This document shows, in pieces, positions 1 to 22,021 of a stretch of DNA of 38,724 nt (positions are counted from its first letter, which is position 1; the number at the start of each line of letters is the position of its first letter). The notes below the pieces were generated by a model that was given only the letters and a program-made list of their open reading frames with translations, did not search any database and had not been told where the DNA came from. The DNA is taken from positions 1-38,724 of the IMG/VR virus record IMGVR_UViG_3300025277_000055. One strand, 5' to 3'. This stretch comes from a virus. Its lineage: Duplodnaviria; Caudoviricetes. The position numbers were made by a program, and so were the translations under genes.

Positions 1-972
1 GTATGTAGCAAGGTTTGTGACCTGTTCTTCTGACAGTTCATCCTTGAAGCACTCGTTTGCCTGCATTTTCTCTACGAGCGCAGAGTGATCATTGATCCCA
101 AAATCCTTGACCAGCTTGTGCTTTCCTTTGTCAAGAATGTCCTCGGGAGTGACAACTTTGGCGTAGTTCTCAACGTAATCGTTGAAAGCAACTGCCGCCT
201 CAAAGCCAACGAATCCAGAGGACAGGTTGAACAGTGTAGCACTAGCACCGTCATCGAGCAGTTTAGTGCGGCTCAACACGGTACTAAGCCGGTCCCAGGA
301 ACGACGGGAAGGATATACCTTATTGGGCTCAAAGTCGGTTGTATGTTCAAGATGATTGCGATTGTTGTTCACAAAATCCCATACTGTAACAGCAACACGG
401 TCCTTTGCCCAATCAAGCCAATCTTCTACAGTGGGTTCTACATCATAGACAGTCCAGCGATCAATCTCTGCCGGGTCCATTTCGCCAACCTGATACTGTT
501 CGCCATGCTCACCACCATTGATAGCAGCGCACACAACTGTGCCAGAGTGAAGGCGATTCCCATTGAGAGTACGACTGTCAGTAAGCTGGAAGATGCCCTG
601 GCGGACCTCTGGCGTAGCACGGTCAACTTCGTCGAGGAACAGGACGCAGGGGTTATCACATGCAAACTGAAACCAATCAGGAGGACAGAAGGAAGTAACA
701 TCGCCGTCTGTCTTAGGCAGGCCGATCAGATCGCCCTCTGTCATTTGAGAGGCGCGGCGCTCGATTACCCGATAACCAGGCAGATCGGTCTTGTCGTCGC
801 GCACTACGATACGTTTGCCATCCCAAGCCAGCTTCTCAGCAGTCTGATACACTACCTGTGACTTGCCAATGCCGTGCCTTCCGCGCAGCATAATGGGATA
901 GATTTTACTGTCTTGTTCCCCCGTGATAACGTGGGGAGCAACTGTTGAAAATGTTTTGAAATCAATCGCCAT
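1..972 (-). CDS. MoxR-like AAA+ ATPase, runs off the left edge
   Basis: Not in ORF track; translated by hand from ATG 972: MAIDFKTF..., Walker A GRHGIGKS, Walker B VLFLDEVDR, AAIN sensor, PSRRSW motif; open frame to position 1. Confidence 0.85.
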   Translation of the reverse strand, partial: MAIDFKTFSTVAPHVITGEQDSKIYPIMLRGRHGIGKSQVVYQTAEKLAWDGKRIVVRDDKTDLPGYRVIERRASQMTEGDLIGLPKTDGDVTSFCPPDWFQFACDNPCVLFLDEVDRATPEVRQGIFQLTDSRTLNGNRLHSGTVVCAAINGGEHGEQYQVGEMDPAEIDRWTVYDVEPTVEDWLDWAKDRVAVTVWDFVNNNRNHLEHTTDFEPNKVYPSRRSWDRLSTVLSRTKLLDDGASATLFNLSSGFVGFEAAVAFNDYVENYAKVVTPEDILDKGKHKLVKDFGINDHSALVEKMQANECFKDELSEEQVTNLATY

Positions 973-1005
973 TTAGTTTTCCTCTTTCTCGATTGTTGTG
1001 CTACC

Positions 1006-1034
1006 AGTATAGCAAATGTTTTTGTGATTGTCAA
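1006..1034 (-). promoter_or_regulatory. sigma70-type promoter TTGACA-17-TATACT, extended -10
   Basis: tgtcaa 1029-1034 and agtata 1006-1011 on +, 17-nt spacer, upstream of the ATPase. Confidence 0.8.
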
Positions 1035-1130
1035 GTATTTTCTTTCTCAATGATTTCAATGACTTGCGGTTCCTTCTATTATAAGTAGTTGATTTCACTG
1101 GATAAAAAACTTTCGGTTGATAAAATGTTA

Positions 1131-1877
1131 CTAGGCTGCTACCTGTTCTTCTGCTTCTAAGAGAGCCTTTGCTTCCTCAAGACGACGCTCGACATAGTAG
1201 TGACCTTCCTCTTTCAAGTTATTGCGAAAACGCCTTATCATGTCTTTGCCTGGTTCATCAAACCAACCATCAGGAGGCTCCACTGTATCTGAGGATACAG
1301 CAATATCATACTCATACCTCATTTGTTCATTGTAAGATAAATCGGGGTGATAGGGCATGGGGATCTCCAAGTTGGTATACCCATAGCGATCTTTGACCTG
1401 CATTTTTACAACAAAACAGTTGGTGCCGTAATAGTTCTTTTTGTTCTGGTGATCAATCCTGTCCCATGCAATATGAGTTATGACCCCCGCGGCTGGAACA
1501 ACATTATAGTTTTCATCATAGTATTCGGGAATATGAATGAGAGCACCGATTCCAAGTCCAGACGCCTTGATGTGTTCATACGCGATGGCGCGGTATACAA
1601 TGGAAAGATCAATCTCACTTTCGAGATGTCCTTTTATTGCTTCACAGGTTGTGACATTGTGACCTTCTGTGCCACAGTAGCTACAGGAGCGCGTTTTCTT
1701 TCTCTTTTGTTCTTCGTCATAACGTTTGACGTTATAGCTATCGGGATCATCTGCGCGTTGTTTTTCAATGTTCCCTGCTCTGTCAGGGCATTTGGTTCTA
1801 TTGTGCCCTCTTGTCCAACAATAGCTGCAAGTTACGGTACGAACGTAGTTCCCCTCTTCATCTCTATACCATGTCAT
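1131..1877 (-). CDS. Protein with two CCHC zinc knuckles and an SH3-like C-terminal half
   Basis: CSYCWTRGHNRTKC and CSYCGTEGHNVTTC; LGIGALI...GVI resembles the array motif. Confidence 0.7.
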   Translation of the reverse strand: MTWYRDEEGNYVRTVTCSYCWTRGHNRTKCPDRAGNIEKQRADDPDSYNVKRYDEEQKRKKTRSCSYCGTEGHNVTTCEAIKGHLESEIDLSIVYRAIAYEHIKASGLGIGALIHIPEYYDENYNVVPAAGVITHIAWDRIDHQNKKNYYGTNCFVVKMQVKDRYGYTNLEIPMPYHPDLSYNEQMRYEYDIAVSSDTVEPPDGWFDEPGKDMIRRFRNNLKEEGHYYVERRLEEAKALLEAEEQVAA

Positions 1878-1914
1878 TTAGATCCTCTCTCTCTCATTTT
1901 TTGAACGTGCTCCC

Positions 1915-1943
1915 ATTATAGCACGGTCGGTTGCGATTGTCAA
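1915..1943 (-). promoter_or_regulatory. sigma70-type promoter TTGACA-17-TATAAT, extended -10
   Basis: Perfect consensus hexamers, 17-nt spacer, TGc before -10. Confidence 0.85.
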
Positions 1944-1956
1944 GAAAAATATTTCC

Positions 1957-2187
1957 TCAATGATTTCCGGTACTTACCACGCTGATGTTCGGTGGAGCAT
2001 CCGGGTTGCAAGGAAATGTTTTGTGTTCTCCGTCTGTTGTGATTATGGTAATGTATTCTGCTTTGTCATATTGTCTAGCGAACTTGTCTATAACGATGCC
2101 ACAAAAGTCTTTTCTAAAGAGATCAAGAAACTCAACACTGAGTTTGTATCCCTTGTAATCTATCTTTACAAGATCACCGACCTTCAT
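1957..2187 (-). CDS. Small KOW/SH3-like array protein
   Basis: MKVGDLV start, GIV motif. Confidence 0.75.
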   Translation of the reverse strand: MKVGDLVKIDYKGYKLSVEFLDLFRKDFCGIVIDKFARQYDKAEYITIITTDGEHKTFPCNPDAPPNISVVSTGNH

Positions 2188-2395
2188 TTATGATCTCGGG
2201 ACTATCTTCTTCTGAGATCCAGGCATATTCACCATCAGTCCACATTGTCCAATACCTGATTACGTCCTGCTCTGGCGCGCCCCGCACATACACCTTCTCA
2301 ATCTTACAAATAATCCCTACACTTGATGGTCCTCCGCACTCCCCAGGACGCGTCCGCGCGTAATCCAAGATCTGTATTAGATCACCGACTTTCAC
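2174..2395 (-). CDS. Small KOW/SH3-like array protein
   Basis: MKVGDLI...GII...W...EIINEGR. Confidence 0.75.
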   Translation of the reverse strand: MKVGDLIQILDYARTRPGECGGPSSVGIICKIEKVYVRGAPEQDVIRYWTMWTDGEYAWISEEDSPEIINEGR

Positions 2396-2606
2396 TTATA
2401 ATCTCCAAGCTCCATGCACCCCACCACATTTCGTCATTTTCAGGGAGATGATACGGATTATTATCTTTGGACAGCCACCTGACCAGGCACTCATATCTCA
2501 AATCTGGATGGCATTTTTCTGCGCGGGTAGACTTTACTTTTTGTAGTATGATGCCAACCCAATCTTTTCTTCGATTCTTCTTTGATACTAAATCACCGAC
2601 TTTCAT
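2382..2606 (-). CDS. Small KOW/SH3-like array protein
   Basis: MKVGDLV...GII...VRW...LEIISESR. Confidence 0.75.
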   Translation of the reverse strand: MKVGDLVSKKNRRKDWVGIILQKVKSTRAEKCHPDLRYECLVRWLSKDNNPYHLPENDEMWWGAWSLEIISESR

Positions 2607-2766
2607 TGATAACTTCCAAATATTCTACGCTAATCCAACGGGGGTTGCCACGGGCTTCTTCGGGCCTCAGAAAGTGAACCCGAATCGTGCATTCACCTCC
2701 CTCAACCACAAGACCGATATTTTGGTCTGCCAGCATTGTACATTTTACCAAGTCACCGACTTTCAT
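2593..2766 (-). CDS. Small KOW/SH3-like array protein, 57 aa, not in ORF track
   Basis: Hand translation MKVGDLVKCTMLADQNIGLVV...LEVINESR. Confidence 0.75.
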   Translation of the reverse strand: MKVGDLVKCTMLADQNIGLVVEGGECTIRVHFLRPEEARGNPRWISVEYLEVINESR

Positions 2767-2947
2767 TTATGACCTCCAACTTCCAATGCCATGCTGGAAG
2801 CCCTATCACGCCTTTGTTGGACAAAAGAGTGTAATGGATCAAATCATCACCCTCGTCGATGCTGCCAAGATATACACACAGCCCAATCTTCGTGCCTGGA
2901 TCTATCATCCTGCCAGCCACCGGGTTTACTAGATCACCGACTTGCAC
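2753..2947 (-). CDS. Small KOW/SH3-like array protein
   Basis: MQVGDLV...LEVINESR. Confidence 0.75.
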   Translation of the reverse strand: MQVGDLVNPVAGRMIDPGTKIGLCVYLGSIDEGDDLIHYTLLSNKGVIGLPAWHWKLEVINESR

Positions 2948-3128
2948 TTACGACCTCCAGACAGTCGCCACCCAAACGATGATACGCCACAGGATTTTCA
3001 TACCTTACGACTATATCACCAAGATGGTCAAACTTCACAACCATGCCTAGTTTTCCACGCAGGACTGCGCCAATGTAGGTGTTGACCACCAGATCTCCAA
3101 TCTTGAAGTTTTTCTTAGGAACCTTCAC
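2934..3128 (-). CDS. Small KOW/SH3-like array protein
   Basis: FKIGDLV...GMVV...LEVVSASR. Confidence 0.75.
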   Translation of the reverse strand: MKVPKKNFKIGDLVVNTYIGAVLRGKLGMVVKFDHLGDIVVRYENPVAYHRLGGDCLEVVSASR

Positions 3129-3408
3129 TTATAACCTCCAACGATCCGCAACCTTCCCATGAGGGCTTGTCGTTGCCATTCCACAAAACGTGGGTGTCGC
3201 CCCATGCTGGCTCGAATGCAGGCCCAACAGTGTCAATGGTTGCGACTACCAACCCTTGTATCTTGTTTCCCTCTGCTGACAGAGCTTCTACCATATCGCC
3301 AACGCGAACCTTGTCGAAGTATGACATCTTTGTCCAGTTGTGTGCCTCACGCCTCTTCTGATATTCGAGCCACTTCTCACGTGACCTTTTCATTGCTCCG
3401 CTTGGCAT
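3115..3408 (-). CDS. KOW/SH3-like array protein with basic N-terminal extension
   Basis: Start moved to ATG 3408, downstream of the promoter; VRVGDMV...GLVV...VLW...LEVISEGS. Confidence 0.7.
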   Translation of the reverse strand: MPSGAMKRSREKWLEYQKRREAHNWTKMSYFDKVRVGDMVEALSAEGNKIQGLVVATIDTVGPAFEPAWGDTHVLWNGNDKPSWEGCGSLEVISEGS

Positions 3409-3439
3409 TTTCTCTCTCTTTCTCGATTGTTGTGTTCCC

Positions 3440-3468
3440 ATTATATCAAATATATTCGCGGTTGTCAA
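3440..3468 (-). promoter_or_regulatory. sigma70-type promoter TTGACA-17-TATAAT
   Basis: Perfect consensus; TGA stop of the upstream gene lies inside TTGACA. Confidence 0.85.
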
Positions 3469-3713
3469 GTATTTTTTTTGCGCTCGTTATGTTCCCGTAA
3501 TCGTTGAACATTTTTGATTGTCGCCTGCACGACATGATCTTTGATCGTAGCCAACGAAGGAGAATCAGTACAGATATTGCTCCAGTTGATAAAATAGTAG
3601 TGAGGGTTCTCGTCTAGGATAATGCCCAGGCCAAAATCTTCACACCTCACAATCTCTCCAGTCATCCCGCCTACGCTGGCAGGATTATAAACAACTAAAT
3701 CACCGATTTTCAC
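3465..3713 (-). CDS. Small KOW/SH3-like array protein
   Basis: MKIGDLV...GII...INW. Confidence 0.75.
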   Translation of the reverse strand: MKIGDLVVYNPASVGGMTGEIVRCEDFGLGIILDENPHYYFINWSNICTDSPSLATIKDHVVQATIKNVQRLREHNERKKNT

Positions 3714-3900
3714 TTATGACCTCCAATCTGTGAGTTGGAACGATTCTTTTCTTCGCCCCTCCATCAAATACGTGTGTCCAGCCGATTTCGGGCTGGAGAG
3801 CCCAAACCAGGAGGAGTGTGCGTTCGCGCCAGAGCTTCACCATTTGACTATTGTCGCCCGTTGTGGTGTTTTTGACTCTTACTAAATCACCGACTTTCAC
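3700..3900 (-). CDS. Small KOW/SH3-like array protein
   Basis: Start moved to GTG 3900 (MKVGDLV) with GGAGG RBS; ends LEVISENR. Confidence 0.75.
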   Translation of the reverse strand: MKVGDLVRVKNTTTGDNSQMVKLWRERTLLLVWALQPEIGWTHVFDGGAKKRIVPTHRLEVISENR

Positions 3901-4072
3901 TGATGACCTCCAGCGAACCAGCAGAAACAACAAGGCGAGTGTTGTCTGTGACAATGCGATGTTGGGGTTCTGCGGAGCCCGCTATCACATCTGTTTCTAG
4001 GACTACGCCTAGCACTCTCTCTGGACAAGAGCGAGCGCCATAAACCCAATAAACCAAATCACCGACTTGCAC
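3887..4072 (-). CDS. Small KOW/SH3-like array protein
   Basis: MQVGDLV...GVV...LEVISESR. Confidence 0.75.
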   Translation of the reverse strand: MQVGDLVYWVYGARSCPERVLGVVLETDVIAGSAEPQHRIVTDNTRLVVSAGSLEVISESR

Positions 4073-4220
4073 TTATGACCTCCACTCTTCTGGTTCGCCA
4101 TATTATCTTGCCCCACGATACCGCAACTTCAACCATACGTGGGTCGCCATGAGGCTTATCGCATAATATAATACCACAGTGCCCGTTGTCTCTGTGTCTT
4201 ACTAAATCACCGACTTTCAC
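4059..4220 (-). CDS. Small KOW/SH3-like array protein
   Basis: Start moved to GTG 4220; MKVGDLV...GII...VEVISASR. Confidence 0.75.
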   Translation of the reverse strand: MKVGDLVRHRDNGHCGIILCDKPHGDPRMVEVAVSWGKIIWRTRRVEVISASR

Positions 4221-4362
4221 TGACAACCTCGCAATCAGAAGCAACTAGCCAACAGATGTTCCCGTTGTCGTTGACAGCTTTTACAGTCCCGCCAGCATCA
4301 TTGATATGTAAAACCACACTAATACAACCCGTCACATACTTTACCAAATCACCGACTTTCAC
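4207..4362 (-). CDS. Small KOW/SH3-like array protein, 51 aa, not in ORF track
   Basis: Hand translation MKVGDLVKYVTGCISVV...CEVVSESR. Confidence 0.7.
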   Translation of the reverse strand: MKVGDLVKYVTGCISVVLHINDAGGTVKAVNDNGNICWLVASDCEVVSESR

Positions 4363-4528
4363 TTAGCAACTCCAACTGGCTACAGGGCAAAGAGGTAGGT
4401 TGACCATCCCAAAAAACTTCAGCGCGTCTAAGAGACTCATGAATACTGTTGTCAGTGATTCTCAAGAATATTCCAACGTCGTCGTCATCGACGTACCATT
4501 TTATCTTTACGAGATCACCGCGTTTCAT
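4349..4528 (-). CDS. Small KOW/SH3-like array protein
   Basis: Start moved to ATG 4528; MKRGDLV...GIF...VFW...LELLSESR. Confidence 0.75.
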   Translation of the reverse strand: MKRGDLVKIKWYVDDDDVGIFLRITDNSIHESLRRAEVFWDGQPTSLPCSQLELLSESR

Positions 4529-4555
4529 TTTCTCTCTCATTTTGAATACGTCCCC

Positions 4556-4584
4556 ATTATAGCACGCTGGATGTCGGTTGTCAA
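4556..4584 (-). promoter_or_regulatory. sigma70-type promoter TTGACA-17-TATAAT, extended -10
   Basis: Perfect consensus followed by leader ttcaaaatgagagagaaaATG. Confidence 0.85.
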
Positions 4585-4610
4585 GAAAAAAATTTCATCA
4601 ATGATTTCAA

Positions 4611-4802
4611 TTACTTGGCGAGTTTGATGTCTCTGATTCGCATGAAAAATGGCGTTTGATCGCCTACCCACAATACTTTATAGCCCATGTTGCCTGCTCC
4701 GGTCACCGCTGTTTCAAGAACTATGCCAACTCTGCATCTAAACCGCGCAAAACACTTGAGTTTGTTTCCATAGGGTGATAGTTGTACTAACTTACCTTTC
4801 AT
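4611..4802 (-). CDS. Small KOW/SH3-like array protein
   Basis: MKGKLVQLSPYG...GIV...VLW; similar to 8237..8503. Confidence 0.7.
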   Translation of the reverse strand: MKGKLVQLSPYGNKLKCFARFRCRVGIVLETAVTGAGNMGYKVLWVGDQTPFFMRIRDIKLAK

Positions 4803-4986
4803 TTATTTTATCCAGTTGATCTATCGACTCCCAACTTGGACCAGCTTTAGACCAGTTGACGCAACAATAGTCCTGTTTGCTATCAGACTCCACAACAATT
4901 CCGACTCCCCATTCGTCACCATGCAAAGCAATCTGTTCGGCAGTCCAACCATCGAAGTTCATCGCCACTAAATCACCTACTCGCAC
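4792..4986 (-). CDS. Small KOW/SH3-like array protein
   Basis: MRVGDLV...GIVV...VNW. Confidence 0.75.
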   Translation of the reverse strand: MRVGDLVAMNFDGWTAEQIALHGDEWGVGIVVESDSKQDYCCVNWSKAGPSWESIDQLDKINER

Positions 4987-5161
4987 TTAGAACCTCCCAA
5001 TAATCAACCAAGCCACACTTTTTCTCACCAGAGTTTAGCATAACTTTTATAGCATTATAATGTATACTCAGCACTATTCCTGTCTCGAAGGTATAATCTT
5101 TGCGGTCTTGTAGTCTCCACCACATAACATCCTTCATCTTTACTAGATCACCGGCTTTCAC
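4973..5161 (-). CDS. Small KOW/SH3-like array protein
   Basis: Start moved to GTG 5161; MKAGDLV...GIV...WEVLSASR. Confidence 0.75.
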   Translation of the reverse strand: MKAGDLVKMKDVMWWRLQDRKDYTFETGIVLSIHYNAIKVMLNSGEKKCGLVDYWEVLSASR

Positions 5162-5315
5162 TAACAACCTCCAGTTCGCCGTGATAGATCTCCACATCTT
5201 CGATTGCTCCCCATTTATCAAGCCATTTCACTAGAACTTCTCCACAATCTTTCACTTGTATAATCAAACCCAAATCACCTGAAGGGGTATGTTCCATCAA
5301 ATCACCGACTCTCAT
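5148..5315 (-). CDS. Small KOW/SH3-like array protein, 55 aa, not in ORF track
   Basis: Hand translation MRVGDLMEHTPSGDLGLII...VKW...LEVVSESR. Confidence 0.75.
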   Translation of the reverse strand: MRVGDLMEHTPSGDLGLIIQVKDCGEVLVKWLDKWGAIEDVEIYHGELEVVSESR

Positions 5316-5529
5316 TTTTTCCTTCCCATTCGTCTAAGATACCTACCTGCAATTCCCAGGCTTCTTCAATTTTGCCCTTTCCTGCGCGTAGTATCTCCAC
5401 AGTGCTACCTGATTTACCGTTTACACCCATTTTTTTGAAAGAAATGAGTAGTGCTGGTCCGTCATATTCACAGTGGTGCCCACAGTTATAACCTGCTGAC
5501 TGGTACCAAACTAGATCACCGGCTTTCAT
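5302..5529 (-). CDS. Small KOW/SH3-like array protein
   Basis: MKAGDLV...NESR. Confidence 0.7.
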   Translation of the reverse strand: MKAGDLVWYQSAGYNCGHHCEYDGPALLISFKKMGVNGKSGSTVEILRAGKGKIEEAWELQVGILDEWEGKNESR

Positions 5530-5767
5530 TTATAACCTCCACATCGCCTTCGTCTATATCTGACTGGTAAATATCCCACGGGCCTACATCAAAAATCACT
5601 TCCCAATAGGGAAGATTAATATTCTTCGAGGGCACAATCTTTTCAGACGTAACCAATCCGACACGACTACTATTCTGTGAACAAAGGAAACAACCGCATT
5701 TTTTGATTGGTTTGTTGCCAGTAATGGTTAGACACTCCCTGATCTTTATTAGATCACCTACTTTCAC
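5516..5767 (-). CDS. KOW/SH3-like array protein with Cys-rich insert
   Basis: MKVGDLI...CGCFLC...GLV...VEVINESR. Confidence 0.75.
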   Translation of the reverse strand: MKVGDLIKIRECLTITGNKPIKKCGCFLCSQNSSRVGLVTSEKIVPSKNINLPYWEVIFDVGPWDIYQSDIDEGDVEVINESR

Positions 5768-5963
5768 TTACAATCTCCAGACTCCAATCTACCCACCAGG
5801 CAGGGCCTTTCGGCTCGCACGCCCACTGAACCAAACAGTCCATCCCCGATGTGTGAGCGCCAAACTTCTGTTCCTCTGCCTCTCTTTGCTCTATTACCAA
5901 CCCAACCCAACCTGTGCGCCTGCCGCGTTTTGGACTTACCAAATCACCTATCCTTACTTTCAC
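5754..5963 (-). CDS. Small KOW/SH3-like array protein
   Basis: RIGDLVS...WVGLVI...CLVQW...WW..WSLEIVSESR; close paralog of 2382..2606. Confidence 0.75.
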   Translation of the reverse strand: MKVRIGDLVSPKRGRRTGWVGLVIEQREAEEQKFGAHTSGMDCLVQWACEPKGPAWWVDWSLEIVSESR

Positions 5964-6153
5964 TTATAATCTCCAACTCTTGCCAACGACAAGTTATATA
6001 CGTTGATCGGGGAAACTTTATAACCGCTGTTCCCATAGCTACATCTGGCGTAGGTTGTGTTAGTTTTGTTACAATGCCAACTACACCTTTTTCCACATAT
6101 CCCTGATTATCATCGAGATCAATGCGAGCCCTAACTAAATCACCGACTTTCAT
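5944..6153 (-). CDS. Small KOW/SH3-like array protein
   Basis: MKVGDLV...GIV...LEIISESKDR. Confidence 0.75.
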   Translation of the reverse strand: MKVGDLVRARIDLDDNQGYVEKGVVGIVTKLTQPTPDVAMGTAVIKFPRSTYITCRWQELEIISESKDR

Positions 6154-6178
6154 TTTCTCTCATTTTGAATGTGCGCCT

Positions 6179-6207
6179 ATTATAGCACGATCCAACGCGG
6201 TTGTCAA
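6179..6207 (-). promoter_or_regulatory. sigma70-type promoter TTGACA-17-TATAAT, extended -10
   Basis: Perfect consensus; upstream gene stop lies inside TTGACA. Confidence 0.85.
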
Positions 6208-6404
6208 GTATTTTTTTTCGCGGAGGTGCTTAGTACCTCAATGTCGTGAGCATAATATGGTTTTGCATCATTTTTACCAAAAAAGAAAACGATAGGATCA
6301 TCTTCAGGATCAAACCCTACTACAATGCCATTGCTCAAGGGTGTTTCATCTTCCCACGTTCTGATCGGGGCGTCTGGATAGTGTACTAAATCACCGACTT
6401 TCAC
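6204..6404 (-). CDS. Small KOW/SH3-like array protein
   Basis: MKVGDLV...GIVV...IEVLS. Confidence 0.75.
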   Translation of the reverse strand: MKVGDLVHYPDAPIRTWEDETPLSNGIVVGFDPEDDPIVFFFGKNDAKPYYAHDIEVLSTSAKKNT

Positions 6405-6567
6405 TTACAACCTCCAACTGCCTTTTGTTCGTTATAAACGATTCTGCGCCGGGACGACTGGCCCATTTGACAAACGCGTACATTGGATTTGTTCTGACGA
6501 TAATTCCAACCCCGTGACTCTCGCGATATTCCTTCCCGCGATACACTACCAAATCGCCAGCTTTCAT
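6391..6567 (-). CDS. Small KOW/SH3-like array protein, 58 aa, not in ORF track
   Basis: Hand translation MKAGDLVVYRG...GII...VKW...LEVVSESR. Confidence 0.75.
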   Translation of the reverse strand: MKAGDLVVYRGKEYRESHGVGIIVRTNPMYAFVKWASRPGAESFITNKRQLEVVSESR

Positions 6568-6568
6568 T

Positions 6569-6763
6569 TTACTCTTCCTCGATTACTACCAAAACAGAAC
6601 ACTCTTGACAGCGAGCAGTAGCCAGGTCGGACTCAATCGGACAGCCATCCGCTTCCATCGCGGTAACGCAGTCTCCATACTCGTCTAAAATCCAAGTCTC
6701 GTAGACCATAGCAGTCATGACAAACTCTTTATGATCGGGATTGTTAGGACATCGCAGTTTCAT
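6569..6763 (-). CDS. Small zinc-ribbon-like protein
   Basis: Start moved to ATG 6763; CPNNPDH and CQEC. Confidence 0.6.
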   Translation of the reverse strand: MKLRCPNNPDHKEFVMTAMVYETWILDEYGDCVTAMEADGCPIESDLATARCQECSVLVVIEEE

Positions 6764-6790
6764 TCTCTCTCTCATTTTGAATACGCCCCT

Positions 6791-6819
6791 ATTGTAGCAC
6801 GTTCACTGGCGGTTGTCAA
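6791..6819 (-). promoter_or_regulatory. sigma70-type promoter TTGACA-17-TACAAT, extended -10
   Basis: Same cassette as 4556 and 6179. Confidence 0.8.
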
Positions 6820-6828
6820 GTATTTTTT

Positions 6829-7350
6829 TCACACGATCTGATATTCTTTGTCGCCTCGGTACTTTCGGAACCAATCCGGCACCTTATCTGCTGGATAGCG
6901 TACTCTTGGTTTACTGGCATAGAATCTGCGATAAGATTCAATAATATTATCAGACCTAAACTCAGGTGGCATAGCCAATGGCAAGGTAGTTGGCTGATCG
7001 GTTGGGAACAAAGAGGAATCATACAACTCTAAACAATTGTCCAACACTGTCATGCACTTGTGAACCTTGCCAAAGCGTGAATGATATTCTTCTATCATTG
7101 ACATAGTGTGCTCGATGAGCGACTCGAAGTTCGCAGAAGAAGCTCTGACCCATTTGGTTGACGGGTGACTTTTATGTGTCGAACGATATGGCGCAACTTG
7201 CTCTCCGTGTTGCTCATTGAGAGTGGTGCACAACATCTGACAAGACTCTAGTATCATCTTGACGACTCGGTAGTTGTCTTGAGATTTCGCAGATTCTATC
7301 CAGTCGATCTCTCCCGTGTCAGTATTCCCTTCGATAGCAAATATATTCAT
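6829..7350 (-). CDS. Phage protein of the pyrimidine-dimer DNA glycosylase-like family
   Basis: MNIF...VVKMILESCQML...H..HP.TKW...LAMP...YR.FY pattern recognised from phage proteins with this annotation. Confidence 0.55.
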   Translation of the reverse strand: MNIFAIEGNTDTGEIDWIESAKSQDNYRVVKMILESCQMLCTTLNEQHGEQVAPYRSTHKSHPSTKWVRASSANFESLIEHTMSMIEEYHSRFGKVHKCMTVLDNCLELYDSSLFPTDQPTTLPLAMPPEFRSDNIIESYRRFYASKPRVRYPADKVPDWFRKYRGDKEYQIV

Positions 7351-7356
7351 GAGGAC

Positions 7357-7385
7357 ATATTATCACATTTATTGTCGGATGTCAA
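7357..7385 (-). promoter_or_regulatory. sigma70-type promoter TTGACA-17-TAATAT, probably leaderless transcript
   Basis: -10 ends 6 nt before ATG 7350; no RBS visible. Confidence 0.55.
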
Positions 7386-7678
7386 CTTTTTTTTCGGAGC
7401 TTTTCAGCAAATGGAATAAAAAGCATCACTGTGACACAGCCAAGCACAATACCATAAACCATACCCTGCATTGATGGATCTACTGCTGCTGCAATACCAT
7501 CAGAAAAGGCATTAGACCCTGTTGCTCCCACTACTGCCCCCAAGAATGGATTTGATTCTTTGCCTAGTTTCTCGGCTAACCACCCTTCAAAGTCTACGCC
7601 GAAGTACATCCCGAAGAGCACGATGCCATTATCCAACAGGCCAAACATCATACCATCTGGAATATAATCAAATATCAT
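7382..7678 (-). CDS. Small membrane protein, TMEM65-like
   Basis: Three Gly-rich hydrophobic segments; FGLLDN and N..SD motifs. Confidence 0.5.
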   Translation of the reverse strand: MIFDYIPDGMMFGLLDNGIVLFGMYFGVDFEGWLAEKLGKESNPFLGAVVGATGSNAFSDGIAAAVDPSMQGMVYGIVLGCVTVMLFIPFAEKLRKKS

Positions 7679-7854
7679 TTTCCCTCACTTATGATTTTAA
7701 GTTGATGACCCAAGAAAAGGAAAGCAGTCCTTTTGCCATGCAACAATATCCAGTATCTCTCTTGATAACTCTGCGTAATTGAAGTCCTGTCGATCTTCAT
7801 AATCAATCCATGTGAACCAACTGTTATACACTTTACAAGATCACCGACTTTCAC
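7675..7854 (-). CDS. Small KOW/SH3-like array protein, 59 aa, not in ORF track
   Basis: Hand translation MKVGDLVKCITVGSHGLI...LKIISEGK; ATGA overlap with next gene. Confidence 0.75.
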   Translation of the reverse strand: MKVGDLVKCITVGSHGLIMKIDRTSITQSYQERYWILLHGKRTAFLFLGHQLKIISEGK

Positions 7855-8056
7855 TTAGTACCTCGAACTCAGCCACTTCAAATCCTACTCTGACGAAACC
7901 AGTGTTGTGCCACATAACGTCACAAAGTTTCGCAGGTTTTTTGCTGCCTTCAGGAATCCCGCGATACACCTTGAGTACCAAAGCAATATCTTTCTCCGAA
8001 TCCAGCAACTTCCAATCACTAAATCTTACCAAGTCACCTTTCTTAACCCTCTTCAC
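7841..8056 (-). CDS. Small KOW/SH3-like array protein
   Basis: KKGDLV...VMW...FEVLSESR. Confidence 0.75.
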   Translation of the reverse strand: MKRVKKGDLVRFSDWKLLDSEKDIALVLKVYRGIPEGSKKPAKLCDVMWHNTGFVRVGFEVAEFEVLSESR

Positions 8057-8240
8057 TTATCACCTCGAAAGCAAAGGATGCCTCTTCCGATATATACGAA
8101 TACCCTCTGCAAACCCAAAGTATGTCATACCTGCGTATATCTTCACCGGGCGAGTATGAATGAGGCCTATCAGTTATCTTTGTAATCAATCCGTGTTTTC
8201 CCTTTGTCCAGCCGTGCTTTACTAAATCACCGACTTTCAT
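8043..8240 (-). CDS. Small KOW/SH3-like array protein
   Basis: MKVGDLV...GLI...ILW...FEVISEEG. Confidence 0.75.
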   Translation of the reverse strand: MKVGDLVKHGWTKGKHGLITKITDRPHSYSPGEDIRRYDILWVCRGYSYISEEASFAFEVISEEG

Positions 8241-8503
8241 TTCTTTTTTGGAGCCCTGTACATTTTGAGATCACTTCTCTTGAAATGTCCTGATTTGCTC
8301 CACATCATTCTTTTTAAGCCTTTATACTTAGGATTGATCCATTGAACAATATAATAAGTTGTTTGATCCCAGTGGCTATCACTCTTGTATACCTCCGTAA
8401 GAAGTCCAACTAGTTTACCGTCTTGCCAATCCCTGTGATGTCGCCACATATTCTCAAGATTAGAACCGTACTGTGATAGTGTTACTAAATCTCCTACTTT
8501 CAT
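8237..8503 (-). CDS. Small KOW/SH3-like array protein
   Basis: MKVGDLVTLSQYG...GLL...VQW. Confidence 0.75.
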   Translation of the reverse strand: MKVGDLVTLSQYGSNLENMWRHHRDWQDGKLVGLLTEVYKSDSHWDQTTYYIVQWINPKYKGLKRMMWSKSGHFKRSDLKMYRAPKKK

Positions 8504-8736
8504 TTTACCTCCGATACTATTATCAAATTTTCTGGTTGTTCGTTGCAGATACCCTTCATATCAAACCATTTCACTGGATATACTTCGCCCGCTAACTCAG
8601 TCTTGCGATAATAATCTTCTATATCCTCCTCATCAACGACATCTGCTAGAAGCCTACCACTTCCAGTAACAACGCCCAGACATTGCTCGTCTGGTGAGTC
8701 ATTTTTGTACAAAACCAATGTTCCGATTTTCAACAT
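8500..8736 (-). CDS. Small KOW/SH3-like array protein
   Basis: Start moved to ATG 8736; MLKIGTLV...GVV...VKW...LIIVSE. Confidence 0.7.
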   Translation of the reverse strand: MLKIGTLVLYKNDSPDEQCLGVVTGSGRLLADVVDEEDIEDYYRKTELAGEVYPVKWFDMKGICNEQPENLIIVSEVK

Positions 8737-8742
8737 GTTCCC

Positions 8743-8771
8743 ATTATAGCAAAAACCAATGTGATTGTCAA
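8743..8771 (-). promoter_or_regulatory. sigma70-type promoter TTGACA-17-TATAAT, probably leaderless transcript
   Basis: Perfect consensus; -10 ends 6 nt before ATG 8736. Confidence 0.8.
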
Positions 8772-8783
8772 GAAAAAAATTGT

Positions 8784-8999
8784 TCAACAATTTCCAGGAC
8801 TTATAATTTCCAGTCCGTCGATGGCGACCAAACGCGACCACCCTGACGGACTAACAACGCGAACATGAGTGTGCGAAAACATAGGATCTCCATCATGATA
8901 AGGCTCTTGTCTTTCTAGATCGATGACTATGAAAAGGTTATCGTCTGGATAACCCTTCATCATGTCATCTTTCCAATAAACTAAGTCGCCTACTTTCAT
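8784..8999 (-). CDS. Small KOW/SH3-like array protein
   Basis: Start moved to ATG 8999; MKVGDLV...LEIIS. Confidence 0.75.
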   Translation of the reverse strand: MKVGDLVYWKDDMMKGYPDDNLFIVIDLERQEPYHDGDPMFSHTHVRVVSPSGWSRLVAIDGLEIISPGNC

Positions 9000-9009
9000 T
9001 CTTGTCTTA

Positions 9010-9153
9010 CTAACAAGGAGTAGGTCCGCCCCAAATCTTATCCTTGCCGTACATGGCTTCAAGCATTTCCTTGGCTGCAAAGAAGTTAGGGGCTTGGACA
9101 TAGACTTCGATATGCCCAGAATCAAGTTTTAGTTTCGCTCTCCAGTTTTGCAT
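9010..9153 (-). CDS. Hypothetical 47-aa protein, not in ORF track
   Basis: MQNWRAKLKLDSGHIEVYVQAPNFFAAKEMLEAMYGKDKIWGGPTPC; GAGGAG RBS; directly after a promoter. Confidence 0.7.
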   Translation of the reverse strand: MQNWRAKLKLDSGHIEVYVQAPNFFAAKEMLEAMYGKDKIWGGPTPC

Positions 9154-9180
9154 CGTTTTCTCCTCGATTGTTGTATTACC

Positions 9181-9209
9181 ATTATAACAAAGAAAAGAAC
9201 AGTTGTCAA
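9181..9209 (-). promoter_or_regulatory. sigma70-type promoter TTGACA-17-TATAAT, extended -10
   Basis: Perfect consensus followed by acaacaatcgag leader. Confidence 0.85.
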
Positions 9210-9222
9210 GAAAAAAATTTCT

Positions 9223-9408
9223 TTAATGATCTCGGGAGCTTACAAGATACAATTCCTCTTCAGAGGCCCAAACTGACCACCCTGTTGACGGATTAATAAC
9301 GCGAACGTCATAATTAAGTCTTGCTAGCTCAACAATCACCATTGGTTTTCCATCTAAAAGTCCGTACATAAGCTCTGATGTCCAACAAACCAGATCACCA
9401 ACCTTCAC
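9223..9408 (-). CDS. Small KOW/SH3-like array protein
   Basis: MKVGDLV...LYLVS; resembles 8784..8999. Confidence 0.75.
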   Translation of the reverse strand: MKVGDLVCWTSELMYGLLDGKPMVIVELARLNYDVRVINPSTGWSVWASEEELYLVSSRDH

Positions 9409-9616
9409 TAATCACCTCAAATGCTGATTCCACAAGGGGGTGCGCGTAATTAAACTTTGGGAAGAAGATAAAATAAGATCCTTGCACAGGATTTCGTACA
9501 CTCTGTACAATTCCTAGTTCTCCTTTAATTTCGTGTTCCATTAACACTGCACAGTTATTTTCAATACGAGCGATTTCAGGTTGCCATACGCAACGAACTA
9601 AGTCACCTACTTTCAT
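9395..9616 (-). CDS. Small KOW/SH3-like array protein
   Basis: Start moved to ATG 9616; MKVGDLV...GIV...FEVISEGW. Confidence 0.75.
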   Translation of the reverse strand: MKVGDLVRCVWQPEIARIENNCAVLMEHEIKGELGIVQSVRNPVQGSYFIFFPKFNYAHPLVESAFEVISEGW

Positions 9617-9896
9617 TATCTTTCTCGTCGTTTGCAACTCCAAGCATGGCATAACCACAAATGTCTCTCCAAGGGCTTTCGCCAAAAGCATCTTTCTTTG
9701 TGGCTAGTCTAAACAACTTATCAATGACTCGCGTAATTGCTAACGCATCTCTGTACTGTTCAGGTTTTATCCCATCAGGATAAAGAACTTTAAGAATCTC
9801 GCATGATTGTCCGAAGGAGTTGCCATAGGCTTCGTTCTTTTCTTGAACAAGCTTTCCAATTTCTAATCCAATATCTTTATAATTATAATCTTTCAT
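9603..9896 (-). CDS. DUF1599 / nucleotide-modification-associated-domain-like helical protein
   Basis: KNEAYGNSF...R.IDKL.RL...D..GYA.L pattern. Confidence 0.55.
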   Translation of the reverse strand: MKDYNYKDIGLEIGKLVQEKNEAYGNSFGQSCEILKVLYPDGIKPEQYRDALAITRVIDKLFRLATKKDAFGESPWRDICGYAMLGVANDEKDNESR

Positions 9897-9898
9897 TT

Positions 9899-10141
9899 TT
9901 AGCTTTCTGTTTTTGCAAGCACTTCTAGTTCATCATGAAATAGTGTTGCTTTAGTTCCATCAAGAAAAATAATTTTAATCCAACGATCTTCTACTCCAAA
10001 CTGATCATACTTCTTAGAAATACCCTCTATAGCAACGTCAACAACAACGCCAGTTATATTTTTGTTTTCAGTCTCTCCTGGATAGTGAGAAGTTTCTTTC
10101 ATTTTAACCAAATCACCAATTTGTATTTGTTTACTCTTCAT
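9899..10141 (-). CDS. Small KOW/SH3-like array protein
   Basis: IQIGDLV...GVVV...ELEVL. Confidence 0.75.
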   Translation of the reverse strand: MKSKQIQIGDLVKMKETSHYPGETENKNITGVVVDVAIEGISKKYDQFGVEDRWIKIIFLDGTKATLFHDELEVLAKTES

Positions 10142-10370
10142 TCTCTACTGGCATAAGCCAGGCTTTCGATAGCGTTATTTTTTTCCCGTTTCTAAACAAA
10201 ACTGTGAAAAGTTCCTCAGCGGGAAGTTCTGGAAAATCTAAAAAATCTTCCTTCGATTCTACTAATATGCCGGTGCAATCTCCAAGTGTTTTTATATACC
10301 TATCATCAAAAGCGTATGAGTGTTTTGCCACCCTCTCTTTATTCAACTTTACCAAATCACCGACCTTCAC
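10131..10370 (-). CDS. Small KOW/SH3-like array protein
   Basis: MKVGDLV...GIL...VLF. Confidence 0.75.
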   Translation of the reverse strand: MKVGDLVKLNKERVAKHSYAFDDRYIKTLGDCTGILVESKEDFLDFPELPAEELFTVLFRNGKKITLSKAWLMPVENEE

Positions 10371-10548
10371 TAATCGGTCCTTTTTTAATCAGCCCTTTTT
10401 CAATCAGCCGTGTCGCTATGCGCCCATAAAAACCTTGCAAGGACCATGCCAATCCCGTGTCTACCAAATGTTGAAAGAGTTCGATTGTCTCCTCGTCAGA
10501 AAGATGTCCCTCTTCGTAGGCAATAAGTTTAGAAGTCAAATCATCCAT
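10357..10548 (-). CDS. Conserved small helical phage protein
   Basis: LFQHLVDTGLAWSLQGFYGR motif; GGAG RBS; first gene after a promoter. Confidence 0.65.
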   Translation of the reverse strand: MDDLTSKLIAYEEGHLSDEETIELFQHLVDTGLAWSLQGFYGRIATRLIEKGLIKKGPISEGR

Positions 10549-10577
10549 TTTTTCTCTCCGATTTTGAATGTGTCCCC

Positions 10578-10606
10578 ATCATAACACGAATCGAGTCGGT
10601 TGTCAA
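10578..10606 (-). promoter_or_regulatory. sigma70-type promoter TTGACA-17-TATGAT, extended -10
   Basis: Same cassette as 4556; marks the start of the early array. Confidence 0.8.
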
Positions 10607-10609
10607 GCA

Positions 10610-12010
10610 TTATTTCAAAAATTTAGCAAAATATTCTTGCAAAGGTGAAGGAGCAGCTGGTTCCAGATGTCTGGACTCCCAACCCGGGTCAGACCATTTT
10701 CTTCTTTCCAACTCCTCCGCTGTCTGTTTTCTCTGGGCGTGGGATTTGGCGTTTTTTGCGAGATATTCCAGAACGTCAATTGGTGTAGCAGGATTTTTAG
10801 TAAGACTGTAAGCAATTGCCGAAATATCTTCGAATTCTTTAGTAGCCAACAGGCGTAGAACTTCTGTTTTCACTTTGGGGCCGGTCCCAAAGTGCTTGGT
10901 TGCGAGCGGCTTAAGCCAATGCTCCCTTCTCTCTTTGGGTATGGAAGCTATCGCAGTTTTTATTTCATCGAGAGAAGCATCTGAACCAATCCTTACCATT
11001 TTATTCAGATCGTACCTTTTAAGTATCTGATATTTTTCATATGCCTCTGTCTTTATAAGCTGGCCATGAAGCGCTTCAAAAGTTTCCTTGGACACCGGAC
11101 TATCATACCGATCCATAAATTGCTCTGTGCCATAATGAAACTGAAATTTTGCAAGAAGAGAGAGATCTTCGAAGTCTCTCCGCTCAAAAATAAACAAAGG
11201 ATTATCCTCTTGATAATACTCTTCAAAATAATCCAAGCCAGGGATAGCAGTACACCAATCTGCTGTTCCGTGGAAACAAGAAGCTGCCTTGTTATGGATA
11301 CCCATTATAACCCATCCACCTTTTCCTGGTACTGTTTCAGGATTGTCTAAGTCAATTTCTCCCCCCGCATTTTTCTTCCACTCTCCTCTAAGAAATTCTG
11401 TACCTTCCACAATCAGATTGGGATTCTTAATCTTTTTTTGTCGACTTTTTTCAATCTCTGGGCGGGCCTCTTCCACAACGGAATAAAGTTCTTCTAGTGA
11501 ACCAATTTGCATTATTTGATTTTTTGACATCAAATGCTTATGATGGAAATACGTCTCTAGAGCATGTGCTATCGGTCGCGAGATGCCGTCTGGGACGGGG
11601 CCGCCAACCAATTCCTTCATAAGGCTGTCGAATGACGCTGTATCTTCTTCGCTTTTTAGTATTTTTAACAACCACAGTATTGCCTCGCCTTTTTGACCAT
11701 CTGTTATATCACCTGGTATTAAATCTCCTTTATGTGGATGAAGGTTTAATGCCAGGCCGGACAAGATCCTTCTAAATCTGTCATGTTTAAATTCCTGTGT
11801 TTGTGTGCGGCCGTACCACGGATCATCTGGCTCGGCCCATTCGTGTTCGTGCTGTTCCATATATCTTAGTATCAAATCTCTAATGGCGTTGGGTACCTTG
11901 GGCTCTAGAGGCGTCGGCCAGTCGAGTTGCGTCTTCATGACGCCTTTTTCACCTTCCCATTGAATTTCTGTTAGAAGATATTTGCGCCAATTTTCAAATA
12001 ATAGTTTCAC
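10610..12010 (-). CDS. MKLLFENW-leader protein, 466 aa, with ASC..G...WCT domain and LRV-like helical end
   Basis: Leader MKLLFENWRKYLLTE; AASCFHGTADWCTA...KFQFH...FMD; NPATPIDVLEYLA. Confidence 0.7.
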   Translation of the reverse strand: MKLLFENWRKYLLTEIQWEGEKGVMKTQLDWPTPLEPKVPNAIRDLILRYMEQHEHEWAEPDDPWYGRTQTQEFKHDRFRRILSGLALNLHPHKGDLIPGDITDGQKGEAILWLLKILKSEEDTASFDSLMKELVGGPVPDGISRPIAHALETYFHHKHLMSKNQIMQIGSLEELYSVVEEARPEIEKSRQKKIKNPNLIVEGTEFLRGEWKKNAGGEIDLDNPETVPGKGGWVIMGIHNKAASCFHGTADWCTAIPGLDYFEEYYQEDNPLFIFERRDFEDLSLLAKFQFHYGTEQFMDRYDSPVSKETFEALHGQLIKTEAYEKYQILKRYDLNKMVRIGSDASLDEIKTAIASIPKERREHWLKPLATKHFGTGPKVKTEVLRLLATKEFEDISAIAYSLTKNPATPIDVLEYLAKNAKSHAQRKQTAEELERRKWSDPGWESRHLEPAAPSPLQEYFAKFLK

Positions 12011-13343: not shown

Positions 13344-13350
13344 AATGACC

Positions 13351-14085: not shown

Positions 14086-14089
14086 AACT

Positions 14090-14098
14090 ATAAATAGT
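14090..14098 (-). promoter_or_regulatory. Putative phage late-promoter motif ACTATTTAT
   Basis: ACTAWTTAN recurs at 16416, 17425, 18055, 23624, 27131, 30250 and 32374, always just upstream of a gene. Confidence 0.55.
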
Positions 14099-14101
14099 TG
14101 C

Positions 14102-15581: not shown

Positions 15582-15869
15582 TCAACTATTTTTTTTTGAA
15601 ACAATTTTTAAATTACCAGCCTCCATCAGTAAACCAGCCGCAATCCAACCATTTTTTCTCATTGGAGGGTACGACGACGGGGATATATCTGTTTCATTTC
15701 TATCTATACACCAATATATTTTAACCATGTCTCCTTGTTCGGTTAACTTTGGCGCTGTCTTTGTCTCTGTTATAATCCCGCATATGTTTCTGCCACTTGA
15801 ATTTTCGTAACAAACTAAGTCGCCGACTTCAAATTTACTTTTTTGCTCTTGATAAGATTTTGAGTTCAT
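15582..15869 (-). CDS. KOW/SH3-like small protein
   Basis: FEVGDLV...GII...IYW...LKIVS. Confidence 0.65.
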   Translation of the reverse strand: MNSKSYQEQKSKFEVGDLVCYENSSGRNICGIITETKTAPKLTEQGDMVKIYWCIDRNETDISPSSYPPMRKNGWIAAGLLMEAGNLKIVSKKNS

Positions 15870-22020: not shown

Positions 22021-22021
22021 T

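Follow-up and report, generated by a model that had tools for sequence, protein, structure and literature searches.

An array of 33 predicted SH3-like mini-genes in an uncultured marine phage, joined by a 14-nt overlap that likely couples translation and likely serves as a boundary sequence for recombination

Results

The stretch of DNA analyzed here (IMG/VR virus record IMGVR_UViG_3300025277_000055, 38,724 nucleotides (nt), hereafter the window) is a 38.7-kb fragment of a large uncultured marine phage, and the minus strand carries all of its genes. Between positions 1957 and 10370 we modelled 39 genes on that strand, namely 33 paralogous mini-genes, whose products are predicted to be SH3-like, and 6 unrelated genes (Table 1). 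At 22 borders of this array, consecutive genes overlap by exactly 14 nt (20 with a TGA and 2 with a TAA stop). This junction likely couples the translation of neighbouring genes, and it is likely also a short boundary sequence where genes are added, removed and replaced. A first-pass annotation, made from the sequence alone, had counted about 22 such overlaps, as we did. It had the array starting at 2174, which we corrected to 1957, and the array comprises about nine transcription units.

The mini-gene products are 51-97 amino acids (aa) long and share the pattern MKVGDLV ... G(I/L)V ... V-W ... W ... LEV(I/V)S. Alignment A1 contains 32 of them, and the family profile, built from these 32 members, matches them by construction. 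The 33rd (8500-8736), outside A1 and unmatched by the profile, was assigned by eye and from its orthologues. Besides the 14-nt overlaps, the array shows one overlap of 20 nt, which is the 14 nt plus two inserted codons, two of 11 nt and three of 4 nt. Recent tandem duplication was rejected as the source of the array, as neighbouring paralogues resemble each other no more than distant ones do (permutation p = 0.13). The G+C content is 0.44-0.46 in the array (window 1-9000) versus 0.34-0.42 in the rest of the window. For the Cys-rich gene 6569-6763, no zinc-ribbon family was matched in Pfam.

A consensus scan of positions 1000-11000 revealed sigma-70-type promoters, all on the minus strand: six at 12/12, three at 11/12 and one at 10/12. 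The six perfect ones read TTGACA-17-TATAAT with an extended -10. These promoters sit in a repeated cassette of about 95 nt ending in a GAGAGA-type leader, and they split the array into units of 1-8 genes each. Inside the runs behind each consensus promoter, the genes follow one another as promoterless cassettes without intergenic space. No terminator-like site or stem-loop was detected beside the array promoters, the only minus-strand terminator-like site being located inside gene 5516-5767.

The recurrent motif reported by the first-pass annotation is real: its quoted 33-mer was located at 3700-3732 (minus strand), and a 25-nt junction pattern (at most 3 mismatches) matched 15 times, only on the minus strand, and never in 100 shuffles. 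A codon-level pattern for M-[KRQ]-[VIA]-G-D-[LM] starts gave 26 matches on the minus strand and 0 on the plus strand. The fixed register that had been described was also recovered. Read in the upstream frame, the junction gives (L)EV(I)S/N-E-S-R-stop, and in the downstream frame MKVGDLV, with GGAGGT, the Shine-Dalgarno (SD) sequence, at -11 to -6 in 16-23 of the 26 starts and an A at -1 in 26/26. Stop, SD and start are thus packed into one stretch of about 30 nt.

Information content was high at only three places: the SD (-11 to -6), the A at -1, and the start together with the codons in the overlap. The free third positions on either side are variable, with 0.08 bits at -5 and 0.5 bits at +20 in the window, and 0.18 and 0.12 bits, respectively, in 389 junctions of other contigs. 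Within the array, Leu-6 appears in six codons and Val-7 in three. On the upstream side, the Glu codon of the last strand (strand 5, see below) is GAG in 19/21 junction cases versus 44/110 in gene bodies. The residue before this Glu varies (L, F, V, W, K, D, C, P), yet its codon ends in G in 15/22 junctions. Also, GGAG or GAGG is present in 258/302 strand-5 stretches with a family start behind them versus 116/233 otherwise. The SD is an overlay at the nucleotide level that is under selection.

The E-S-R-stop tail corresponds to AAA-GTC-GGT-GA of the next gene, read in a frame shifted by one base. Just ahead of the tail, a GTG start goes with AGT (Ser) and an ATG start with AAT (Asn). GTG is the start codon in 16/22 of the 14-nt junctions versus 1/18 of the other array genes, and ATG in 9/9 promoter-proximal genes. 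Even where no such start lies behind, Ser is the commonest residue at that place (110/233, including 18 AGC and 6 TCA codons), which suggests that a conserved Ser in the protein (AGT) pushes the next start to GTG. Codons rich in A/T just after the start, such as TTA, GTA and GAT, fit the known codon bias of 5' ends. The nucleotide conservation of the junction is mostly explained by dual coding, the SD and these A/T-rich 5' codons. As for DNA structure, none of the eight junctions folded as single-stranded DNA contained a hairpin or inverted repeat (minimum free energy -1.0 to -4.6 kcal/mol, z -1.05 to +1.55), and an attC-like structure was rejected.

The junction had also been noted behind unrelated genes, and two of these, 10357-10548 and 9603-9896, do end in it. 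However, this is no more than expected by chance. Since the MKVGD start has stops in both other frames, any out-of-frame upstream gene ends inside it. In loci fetched with the junction pattern, a set biased to the 14-nt form, upstream open reading frames (ORFs) unmatched by the family profile showed the 14-nt overlap in 61 cases, the 4-nt overlap in 32 and neither in 33, and about half of those 61 look like undetected family members from a reading of their tails. By comparison, the 378 family-to-family junctions of these loci were distributed as 328 (14-nt), 33 (4-nt) and 17 (neither). The fixed register thus belongs to the family, not to a mobile junction, because unrelated upstream ORFs use the frames for about one third each. 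A special status of the junction behind unrelated genes was therefore rejected. The starts at 3128 and 8056 (minus strand) belong to N-terminally extended members without the GGTGA core, and the upstream stop is still found at +11 to +13, as TAA. Other sequence keeps the register there, which may reflect either chance or selection on the register.

No Pfam or PHROG family was found above threshold for any mini-protein. Their source names in a collection of 5.8 billion proteins are absent or 'hypothetical', and the ESM Atlas returned only unnamed viral clusters and SH3-like leads. AlphaFold2 (AF2), run with A1 as the alignment, gave a model with a predicted local distance difference test score (pLDDT) of 92. 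It contains strands at residues 6-11, 18-28, 37-41, 46-50 and 54-58 and a short helix before the last one. In MKVGDLV, strand 1 begins with LV, and LEVIS forms strand 5. Thus, the proposal that the two conserved peptides are the paired first and last strands of a barrel agrees with the model, and the mini-proteins are predicted to be five-stranded SH3-like barrels. Foldseek placed KOW, Tudor, chromo-barrel and SH3 domains on top (TM-score on the query, TMq, 0.6-0.75; all E >= 0.03) and also returned many uncharacterised phage proteins of 60-80 aa.

An exhaustive profile search gave 2,326 representatives (50% identity, E <= 0.001), nearly all of 51-83 aa. Its best row was a eukaryotic RING ligase carrying Mind bomb SH3 repeats (PF18346, SH3_15). 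An hhalign comparison with one PF18346 repeat of protein P0060 reached a probability of 93.4% (E 2.4e-7) with both end motifs aligned, the common features being the KVGD-V start, G-VG, V-W, W and the (L/M)EV(I/V) end. Conversely, PF18346 gave no row for any of the 39 array proteins even at E <= 1, and the family profile found only weak PWWP, KOW and MIB1 rows in the PDB (best E 0.0019). In terms of sequence, the mini-proteins appear distantly like the Mind bomb SH3 repeat. As this repeat carries both motifs within a single long protein without overlapping genes, the conserved end peptides belong to the fold. The first-pass annotation had named protein-level constraint as an alternative explanation, and for the end peptides this is supported.

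Two proteins, P0061 (127 aa) and P0083 (143 aa), are natural two-domain forms, with two family units in one frame across a former junction (...LEVVKQVKVGDLV...). Judging from these two sequences, a frame change at the junction fuses the neighbours. Full-text searches of the literature gave no description of the mini-gene family or of the junction.

Relatives were fetched with the anchor gene 6829-7350, giving 80 IMG/VR loci and 78 metagenome loci. Among them, L254 is the window itself, L001 is the same contig as L257, and L253 represents the same phage (99.9% identity across 17 kb, four gaps) and confirms the gene order of the window. L252, L255, L256, L258, L259, L001 and L125 are collinear with the window and differ from it gene by gene. 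The claim that whole genes are inserted, deleted or reordered at the junction was thus borne out in part. Gain, loss and replacement occur, their joins sit at the junction and both frames are kept. However, reordering was not seen, since the gene order is conserved in the six relatives tabulated for gene content and in L125. For example, the slot between 8043-8240 and 7675-7854 shows five states in seven contigs, with flanks 84-87% identical: gene 7841-8056 in the window, its orthologue (57-58% nt identity) in L256 and L259, an unrelated member in L255, that member plus another in L252, and none in L001 and L258.

In the gene content events labelled B and C, 13-20 nt are common at the crossover inside the junction, and in event D about 8 nt. 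In the six relatives, 49 of 60 internal ends of collinear BLAST segments lie at most 25 nt from a gene start, versus 22% expected (binomial 3e-22). Of the remaining 11 ends, 7 are placed at the upstream edge of promoter cassettes. The fetched loci contain 982 distinct family proteins (713 clusters at 60% identity), a count obtained with a relaxed start pattern that likely admits some false members. Of the 36 clusters with three or more proteins, 32 have two or more different downstream partners. Single-cassette translocation found no support: 21 clusters stood in seemingly unrelated contexts, and the one case inspected (L125) was collinear with many indels. None of the sequencing runs that contain the stretch is an RNA run. 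In the assembled contigs of four runs, many joints and loose ends fall at junction positions, where sides of 20-30 nt are repeat matches from other phages. The joint from 5314 to 5509 (sides of 51-58 nt, three runs) agrees with a replacement of gene 5302-5529 as in L252.

A 96-aa gene, hydrophobic in an N-terminal stretch and not present in the window, lies directly behind the promoter leader in three relatives (L001:3291-3569, L258:1234-1524, L259:1595-1885). It starts with M-N-E-S-R-R in L001, which are the tail-frame residues of the junction, and with M-N-E-N-R-R and M-N-K-N-R-R in L258 and L259, respectively. This start may derive from a decayed junction.

As the window is only a fragment, the recombinase content was read from relatives. 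Four of these are complete (185-205 kb), with an anchor protein 70-73% identical to that of the window, and each contains 11-16 clustered family members. RecA/UvsX (RecA PF00154), the Gp23 T4 capsid protein and a gp21-type protease were detected in 4/4. RecT, ERF, integrase, including tyrosine recombinase (PF00589), and resolvase were found in 0/5 related records (the four complete ones and a partial one), and no Phage_integrase or Resolvase was present among the 69 window proteins scanned. Where identity between orthologous stretches changes (100% to 77-96%), it does so within genes, and recombination is therefore general. In L255, identity to the window is 100% over 7350-4478 and then 96%, 89% and about 80%, the step being inside a membrane gene. 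L001 matches the window at 100% from upstream of 6629 to 5405 and at 77% before that, the step being inside the Cys-rich gene 6569-6763.

Megablast of positions 2000-10500 against 50,697 phage records gave no match. Close cultured relatives were rejected, as the matches of GroEL, the anchor gene and DnaE were all under 60% identity. The available part of a study of pelagimyophages (PMC7029224) mentions hypervariable regions and no such arrays, with 'tandem' and 'small ORFs' occurring 0 times.

Outside the array, at 10610-14151 and 18410-22546 (minus strand) and more weakly at 22799-23227, at least nine proteins of 103-583 aa, otherwise unrelated, start with MKLLFENWR(K/Q/R)YL, followed by (L/V)-x-E within 2-3 residues. 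No Pfam family covers this leader. The internal proteins of T4 carry a common N-terminal capsid-targeting leader that is cut at L/I-x-E. By analogy, and as the complete relatives encode a gp21-type prohead protease, these proteins may be packaged and injected. Finally, the ORF 16851-17420 scored above the cut-off (E 9e-8) for the S-adenosylmethionine lyase family, which is known among phage anti-restriction enzymes. Its neighbourhood also encodes thymidine kinase, NUDIX, Hsp20, glutaredoxin, GroEL, a Clp-type protease and a DnaE-type polymerase.

Table 1. Genes, junction and promoters of the array, with the outlying family member (14-nt and other overlaps are with the upstream gene).
Feature	Position	Strand	Basis
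Whole array: 33 SH3-like (predicted) mini-genes and 6 unrelated genes	1957..10370	minus	gene models, alignment A1, profile matches
Family gene, 14-nt overlap with upstream DUF7417 gene	10131..10370	minus	gene model, A1
Family gene, N-terminal extension, 11-nt overlap	9899..10141	minus	gene model, A1
Family gene, 14-nt overlap with upstream phrog_1485 gene	9395..9616	minus	gene model
Family gene, 14-nt overlap, ends its unit (tail LVSSRDH, without SD)	9223..9408	minus	gene model
Family gene, 10-nt gap upstream, ends its unit (tail LEIISPGNC)	8784..8999	minus	gene model
Probable family gene (MLKIGTLV...IIVSEVK), first behind promoter	8500..8736	minus	translation; orthologues in L252, L255, L256, L001
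Family gene, 4-nt ATGA overlap	8237..8503	minus	gene model
Family gene, 4-nt ATGA overlap	8043..8240	minus	gene model
Family gene (MKRVKKGDLV), 14-nt overlap with TAA, variable slot	7841..8056	minus	gene model, relatives
Family gene, 14-nt overlap	7675..7854	minus	gene model
Family gene, 1-nt gap after 'Zn-ribbon gene'	6391..6567	minus	gene model
Family gene, 14-nt overlap, ends its unit	6204..6404	minus	gene model
Family gene, first behind promoter	5944..6153	minus	gene model, promoter scan
Family gene (MKVRIGDLV), 20-nt overlap	5754..5963	minus	gene model
Family gene, 14-nt overlap	5516..5767	minus	gene model
Family gene, 14-nt overlap; unrelated member in its place in L252	5302..5529	minus	gene model, relatives
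Family gene, 14-nt overlap	5148..5315	minus	gene model
Family gene, 14-nt overlap; extra gene precedes in L252	4973..5161	minus	gene model, relatives
Family gene, 14-nt overlap; missing from L252	4792..4986	minus	gene model, relatives
Family gene (MKGKLVQL), 11-nt overlap, ends its unit	4611..4802	minus	gene model
Family gene, first behind promoter	4349..4528	minus	gene model, promoter scan
Family gene, 14-nt overlap; replaced in L125	4207..4362	minus	gene model, relatives
Family gene, 14-nt overlap	4059..4220	minus	gene model
Family gene, 14-nt overlap; member folded (pLDDT 92); missing from L125	3887..4072	minus	gene model, AF2, relatives
Family gene, 14-nt overlap	3700..3900	minus	gene model
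Family gene, 14-nt overlap, ends its unit	3465..3713	minus	gene model
Family gene, long N-terminal extension, first behind promoter	3115..3408	minus	A1
Family gene (MKVPKKNFKIGDLV), 14-nt overlap with TAA	2934..3128	minus	gene model
Family gene, 14-nt overlap	2753..2947	minus	gene model
Family gene, 14-nt overlap	2593..2766	minus	gene model
Family gene, 14-nt overlap	2382..2606	minus	gene model
Family gene, 14-nt overlap	2174..2395	minus	gene model
Family gene, 14-nt overlap, last gene of the array	1957..2187	minus	gene model
Junction quoted in the first-pass annotation: SD GGAGGT, GTG start of gene 3465-3713, TGA stop of gene 3700-3900	3700..3732	minus	33-mer located
Unrelated gene DUF7417 / phrog_3908; last residues SEGR read from start of next gene	10357..10548	minus	Pfam, PHROG
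Unrelated gene phrog_1485, ends in NESR at 14-nt overlap	9603..9896	minus	PHROG
Unrelated 47-aa gene, first behind promoter	9010..9153	minus	gene model
Unrelated hydrophobic 98-aa gene; missing from L001, L256, L258, L259	7382..7678	minus	gene model, relatives
Unrelated gene phrog_624 ('DNA binding protein'), anchor for fetching relatives	6829..7350	minus	PHROG
Unrelated Cys-rich 64-aa gene, 'Zn-ribbon gene' named from Cys pattern	6569..6763	minus	gene model
Outlying family member, sole profile match not used in profile building (E 2e-5)	15582..15869	minus	profile search
Sigma-70-type promoter, 11/12	10578..10606	minus	
Sigma-70-type promoter, 12/12, extended -10	9181..9209	minus	
Sigma-70-type promoter, 12/12	8743..8771	minus	
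Sigma-70-type promoter, 10/12	7357..7385	minus	
Sigma-70-type promoter, 11/12	6791..6819	minus	
Sigma-70-type promoter, 12/12	6179..6207	minus	
Sigma-70-type promoter, 12/12	4556..4584	minus	
Sigma-70-type promoter, 12/12	3440..3468	minus	
Sigma-70-type promoter, 12/12, immediately downstream of array	1915..1943	minus	

Discussion

We propose, with a probability of roughly 0.7, that the 14-nt junction of this array of 33 predicted SH3-like genes couples translation and is also a short boundary sequence where ordinary recombination adds, removes and replaces genes. From its sequence, the junction would be in the first place a translational device, laid over the two end strands of the predicted barrel. 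A ribosome ending at the TGA or TAA stop (+11 to +13) would restart at the RTG (R being A or G) lying 11 nt back, with the help of the GGAGGT located 5-6 nt before that start. The ESR tail would be a by-product of the MKVGD codons of the next gene, and the conserved Ser (AGT) after strand 5 would give the GTG start. Because every member has it, the junction is the sole stretch of likeness between otherwise unrelated neighbours. Phage recombination of the RecA/UvsX type, or events driven by microhomology, could use its 5-27 nt of common sequence as crossover points, and selection would retain only the products that preserve the frames.

The array marks a large uncatalogued family, with its 2,326 representatives and no Pfam or PHROG entry. 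The family likely consists of early phage mini-proteins that turn over gene by gene, a pattern expected of host-takeover or counter-defence binders, and the mini-proteins might act as early-expressed accessory binders. Also, nearly all gene borders of this hyperplastic array carry a boundary sequence whose conservation is independently accounted for by coding and translation, and it is exactly there that relatives differ.

Several observations weigh against this proposal. The exact homology offered by the junction is short: for window junctions compared in pairs, the longest exact run in register is 9 nt in the median and 27 nt at most, and only 27/231 pairs reach 15 nt (at control places the median is 3 and the maximum 7 nt). 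The parents of event A have only few common bases, at the start codon. The 60 homology ends are not independent events, and their test is partly circular because all junctions are alike and alignments run into any of them. Selection would in any case remove products that break genes. All relatives are metagenome assemblies in which chimeric joins are possible; yet the variants recur in separate assemblies. Finally, Val-3 is GTC in 15/21 family starts (position +8) versus 19/143 (13%) of the Val codons in window gene bodies. This is not explained by dual coding, since GTC still accounts for 43-44% of Val-3 codons in starts of other contigs without the 14-nt overlap.

Some of these observations would be expected if only protein and translation constraints were at work, gene gain and loss being due to random illegitimate recombination followed by selection, with no causal role for the homology of the junction. 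As the genes overlap, only junction-precise products keep both of them, and random breaks with selection could thus give the same picture. The short homology, the scarcity of common bases in event A, the variable free synonymous sites beside the overlap, the presence of both end motifs in the eukaryotic Mind bomb repeat and the lack of greater likeness between adjacent paralogues are all in line with this explanation. Nevertheless, events B and C have 13-20 nt of common sequence at the crossover, and the same few slots have changed many times between flanks that are 84-97% identical. Guidance by homology or microhomology is more economical, because junction-to-junction products are a tiny share of random breaks. 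We therefore regard constraint alone as unlikely, while granting it a real chance. The first-pass annotation had stated that its idea would be refuted if dual-frame coding fully accounted for the conservation and if breakpoints were not enriched at junctions. Dual coding with the SD does mostly account for the conservation, but the breakpoints are enriched, so that only half of this refutation holds.

The idea of the junction as a boundary sequence could also be taken much further, to an interface standard. Thousands of diverged SH3-like mini-genes in marine and freshwater T4-like phages would then keep one stop, SD and start register because it lets phage-encoded recombination exchange any cassette for any other. 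If this were true, a pan-viral, plug-compatible pool of early genes would result, amounting to an integron-like gene market without integrase. We consider this improbable.

Another explanation is concerted evolution, in which frequent gene conversion homogenises the junctions and their likeness results from recombination more than from selection. The excess of GTC at Val-3 even without an upstream overlap and that of TTA at Leu-6 (11/26 versus 10/114) would agree with it. However, the codons of Leu-6, Val-7 and the strand-5 Val and Ile use 4-6 synonymous forms in the array, the A/T-rich choices fit the codon bias of 5' ends, and conversion tracts would homogenise the flanking codons too, which are unlike. 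Concerted evolution thus appears very improbable.

Hardly credible, lastly, is the dedicated cassette system suggested by the first-pass annotation, an integron without attC in which a specific recombinase or annealase would recognise the junction to excise and insert mini-gene cassettes: the same motif does bound every cassette, the cassettes are promoterless behind strong promoters and the exact motif occurs in about 300 IMG/VR stretches, but no tyrosine or serine recombinase was found in the four complete relatives, the partial one or the 69 window proteins scanned (RecA/UvsX being found instead in the four complete relatives), the site lacks a hairpin or inverted repeat, coding and SD account for its conservation, recombination between orthologous stretches is not bound to it, and the gene order is conserved, not shuffled.

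Comparison with Known Systems

Like integron cassettes, the array genes are promoterless units of one gene each, lined up behind a promoter and gained or lost unit by unit. Unlike integrons, the array has no integrase, no attC-like folded site and no attI, its order is conserved and recombination elsewhere is general. The array is thus not integron-like, and a dedicated machine of the integron type is not supported. Coupled overlapping genes are well known in bacteria and phages, where overlaps of 4 nt (ATGA) and 1 nt are common. As in these, the stop of the array genes overlaps the next start, with an SD inside the upstream gene at a suitable spacing. What differs is the repetition of one 14-nt register, 22 times in the array and in 328/378 family-to-family junctions of the fetched loci. 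With the Mind bomb SH3 repeat (PF18346), the mini-proteins have in common the end motifs aligned by hhalign and the predicted SH3-like barrel. However, the phage proteins are viral and single-domain, whereas the Pfam family comprises repeats in eukaryotic RING ligases.

A model of phage mosaicism based on short conserved boundary sequences has been proposed (PMC3029335). As outlined in the available part of that paper, conserved sequences at gene borders provide portable homology between unrelated genes, as the junction would here. The array differs in having a boundary sequence at nearly every border, conserved for an independent cause, coding and translation.

The closest worked example is that of the PeSL (promoter-early stem-loop) cassettes of T4-type phages, for which the available parts of two papers describe repeated expression signals in a hyperplastic region of small non-essential genes, with insertions, deletions and replacements between close relatives at PeSL sites and homologous recombination as the proposed agent (Arbiol et al. 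2010, PMC2839356; Comeau et al. 2014, PMC4122927). Mini-circles that arise by exchange between neighbouring motifs are also part of PeSL shuffling. The array too has repeated cassettes with strong sigma-70-type promoters, at whose upstream edge 7/60 homology ends are located, and its indels and replacements between close relatives are bounded by a motif (49/60 ends at gene starts or junctions, 7 at promoter cassettes). Also, the complete relatives of the window phage are T4-like (Gp23 and gp21-type protease in 4/4). On the other hand, the main repeat of the array is a translational signal within coding sequence, in two frames, and not an intergenic promoter with a terminator as described for PeSL. 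The array promoters have no adjoining stem-loop, and the common sequence is shorter. By analogy, and so far as PeSL sites are described in those parts, the array resembles PeSL shuffling in which a coding and translational signal replaces the promoter and terminator.

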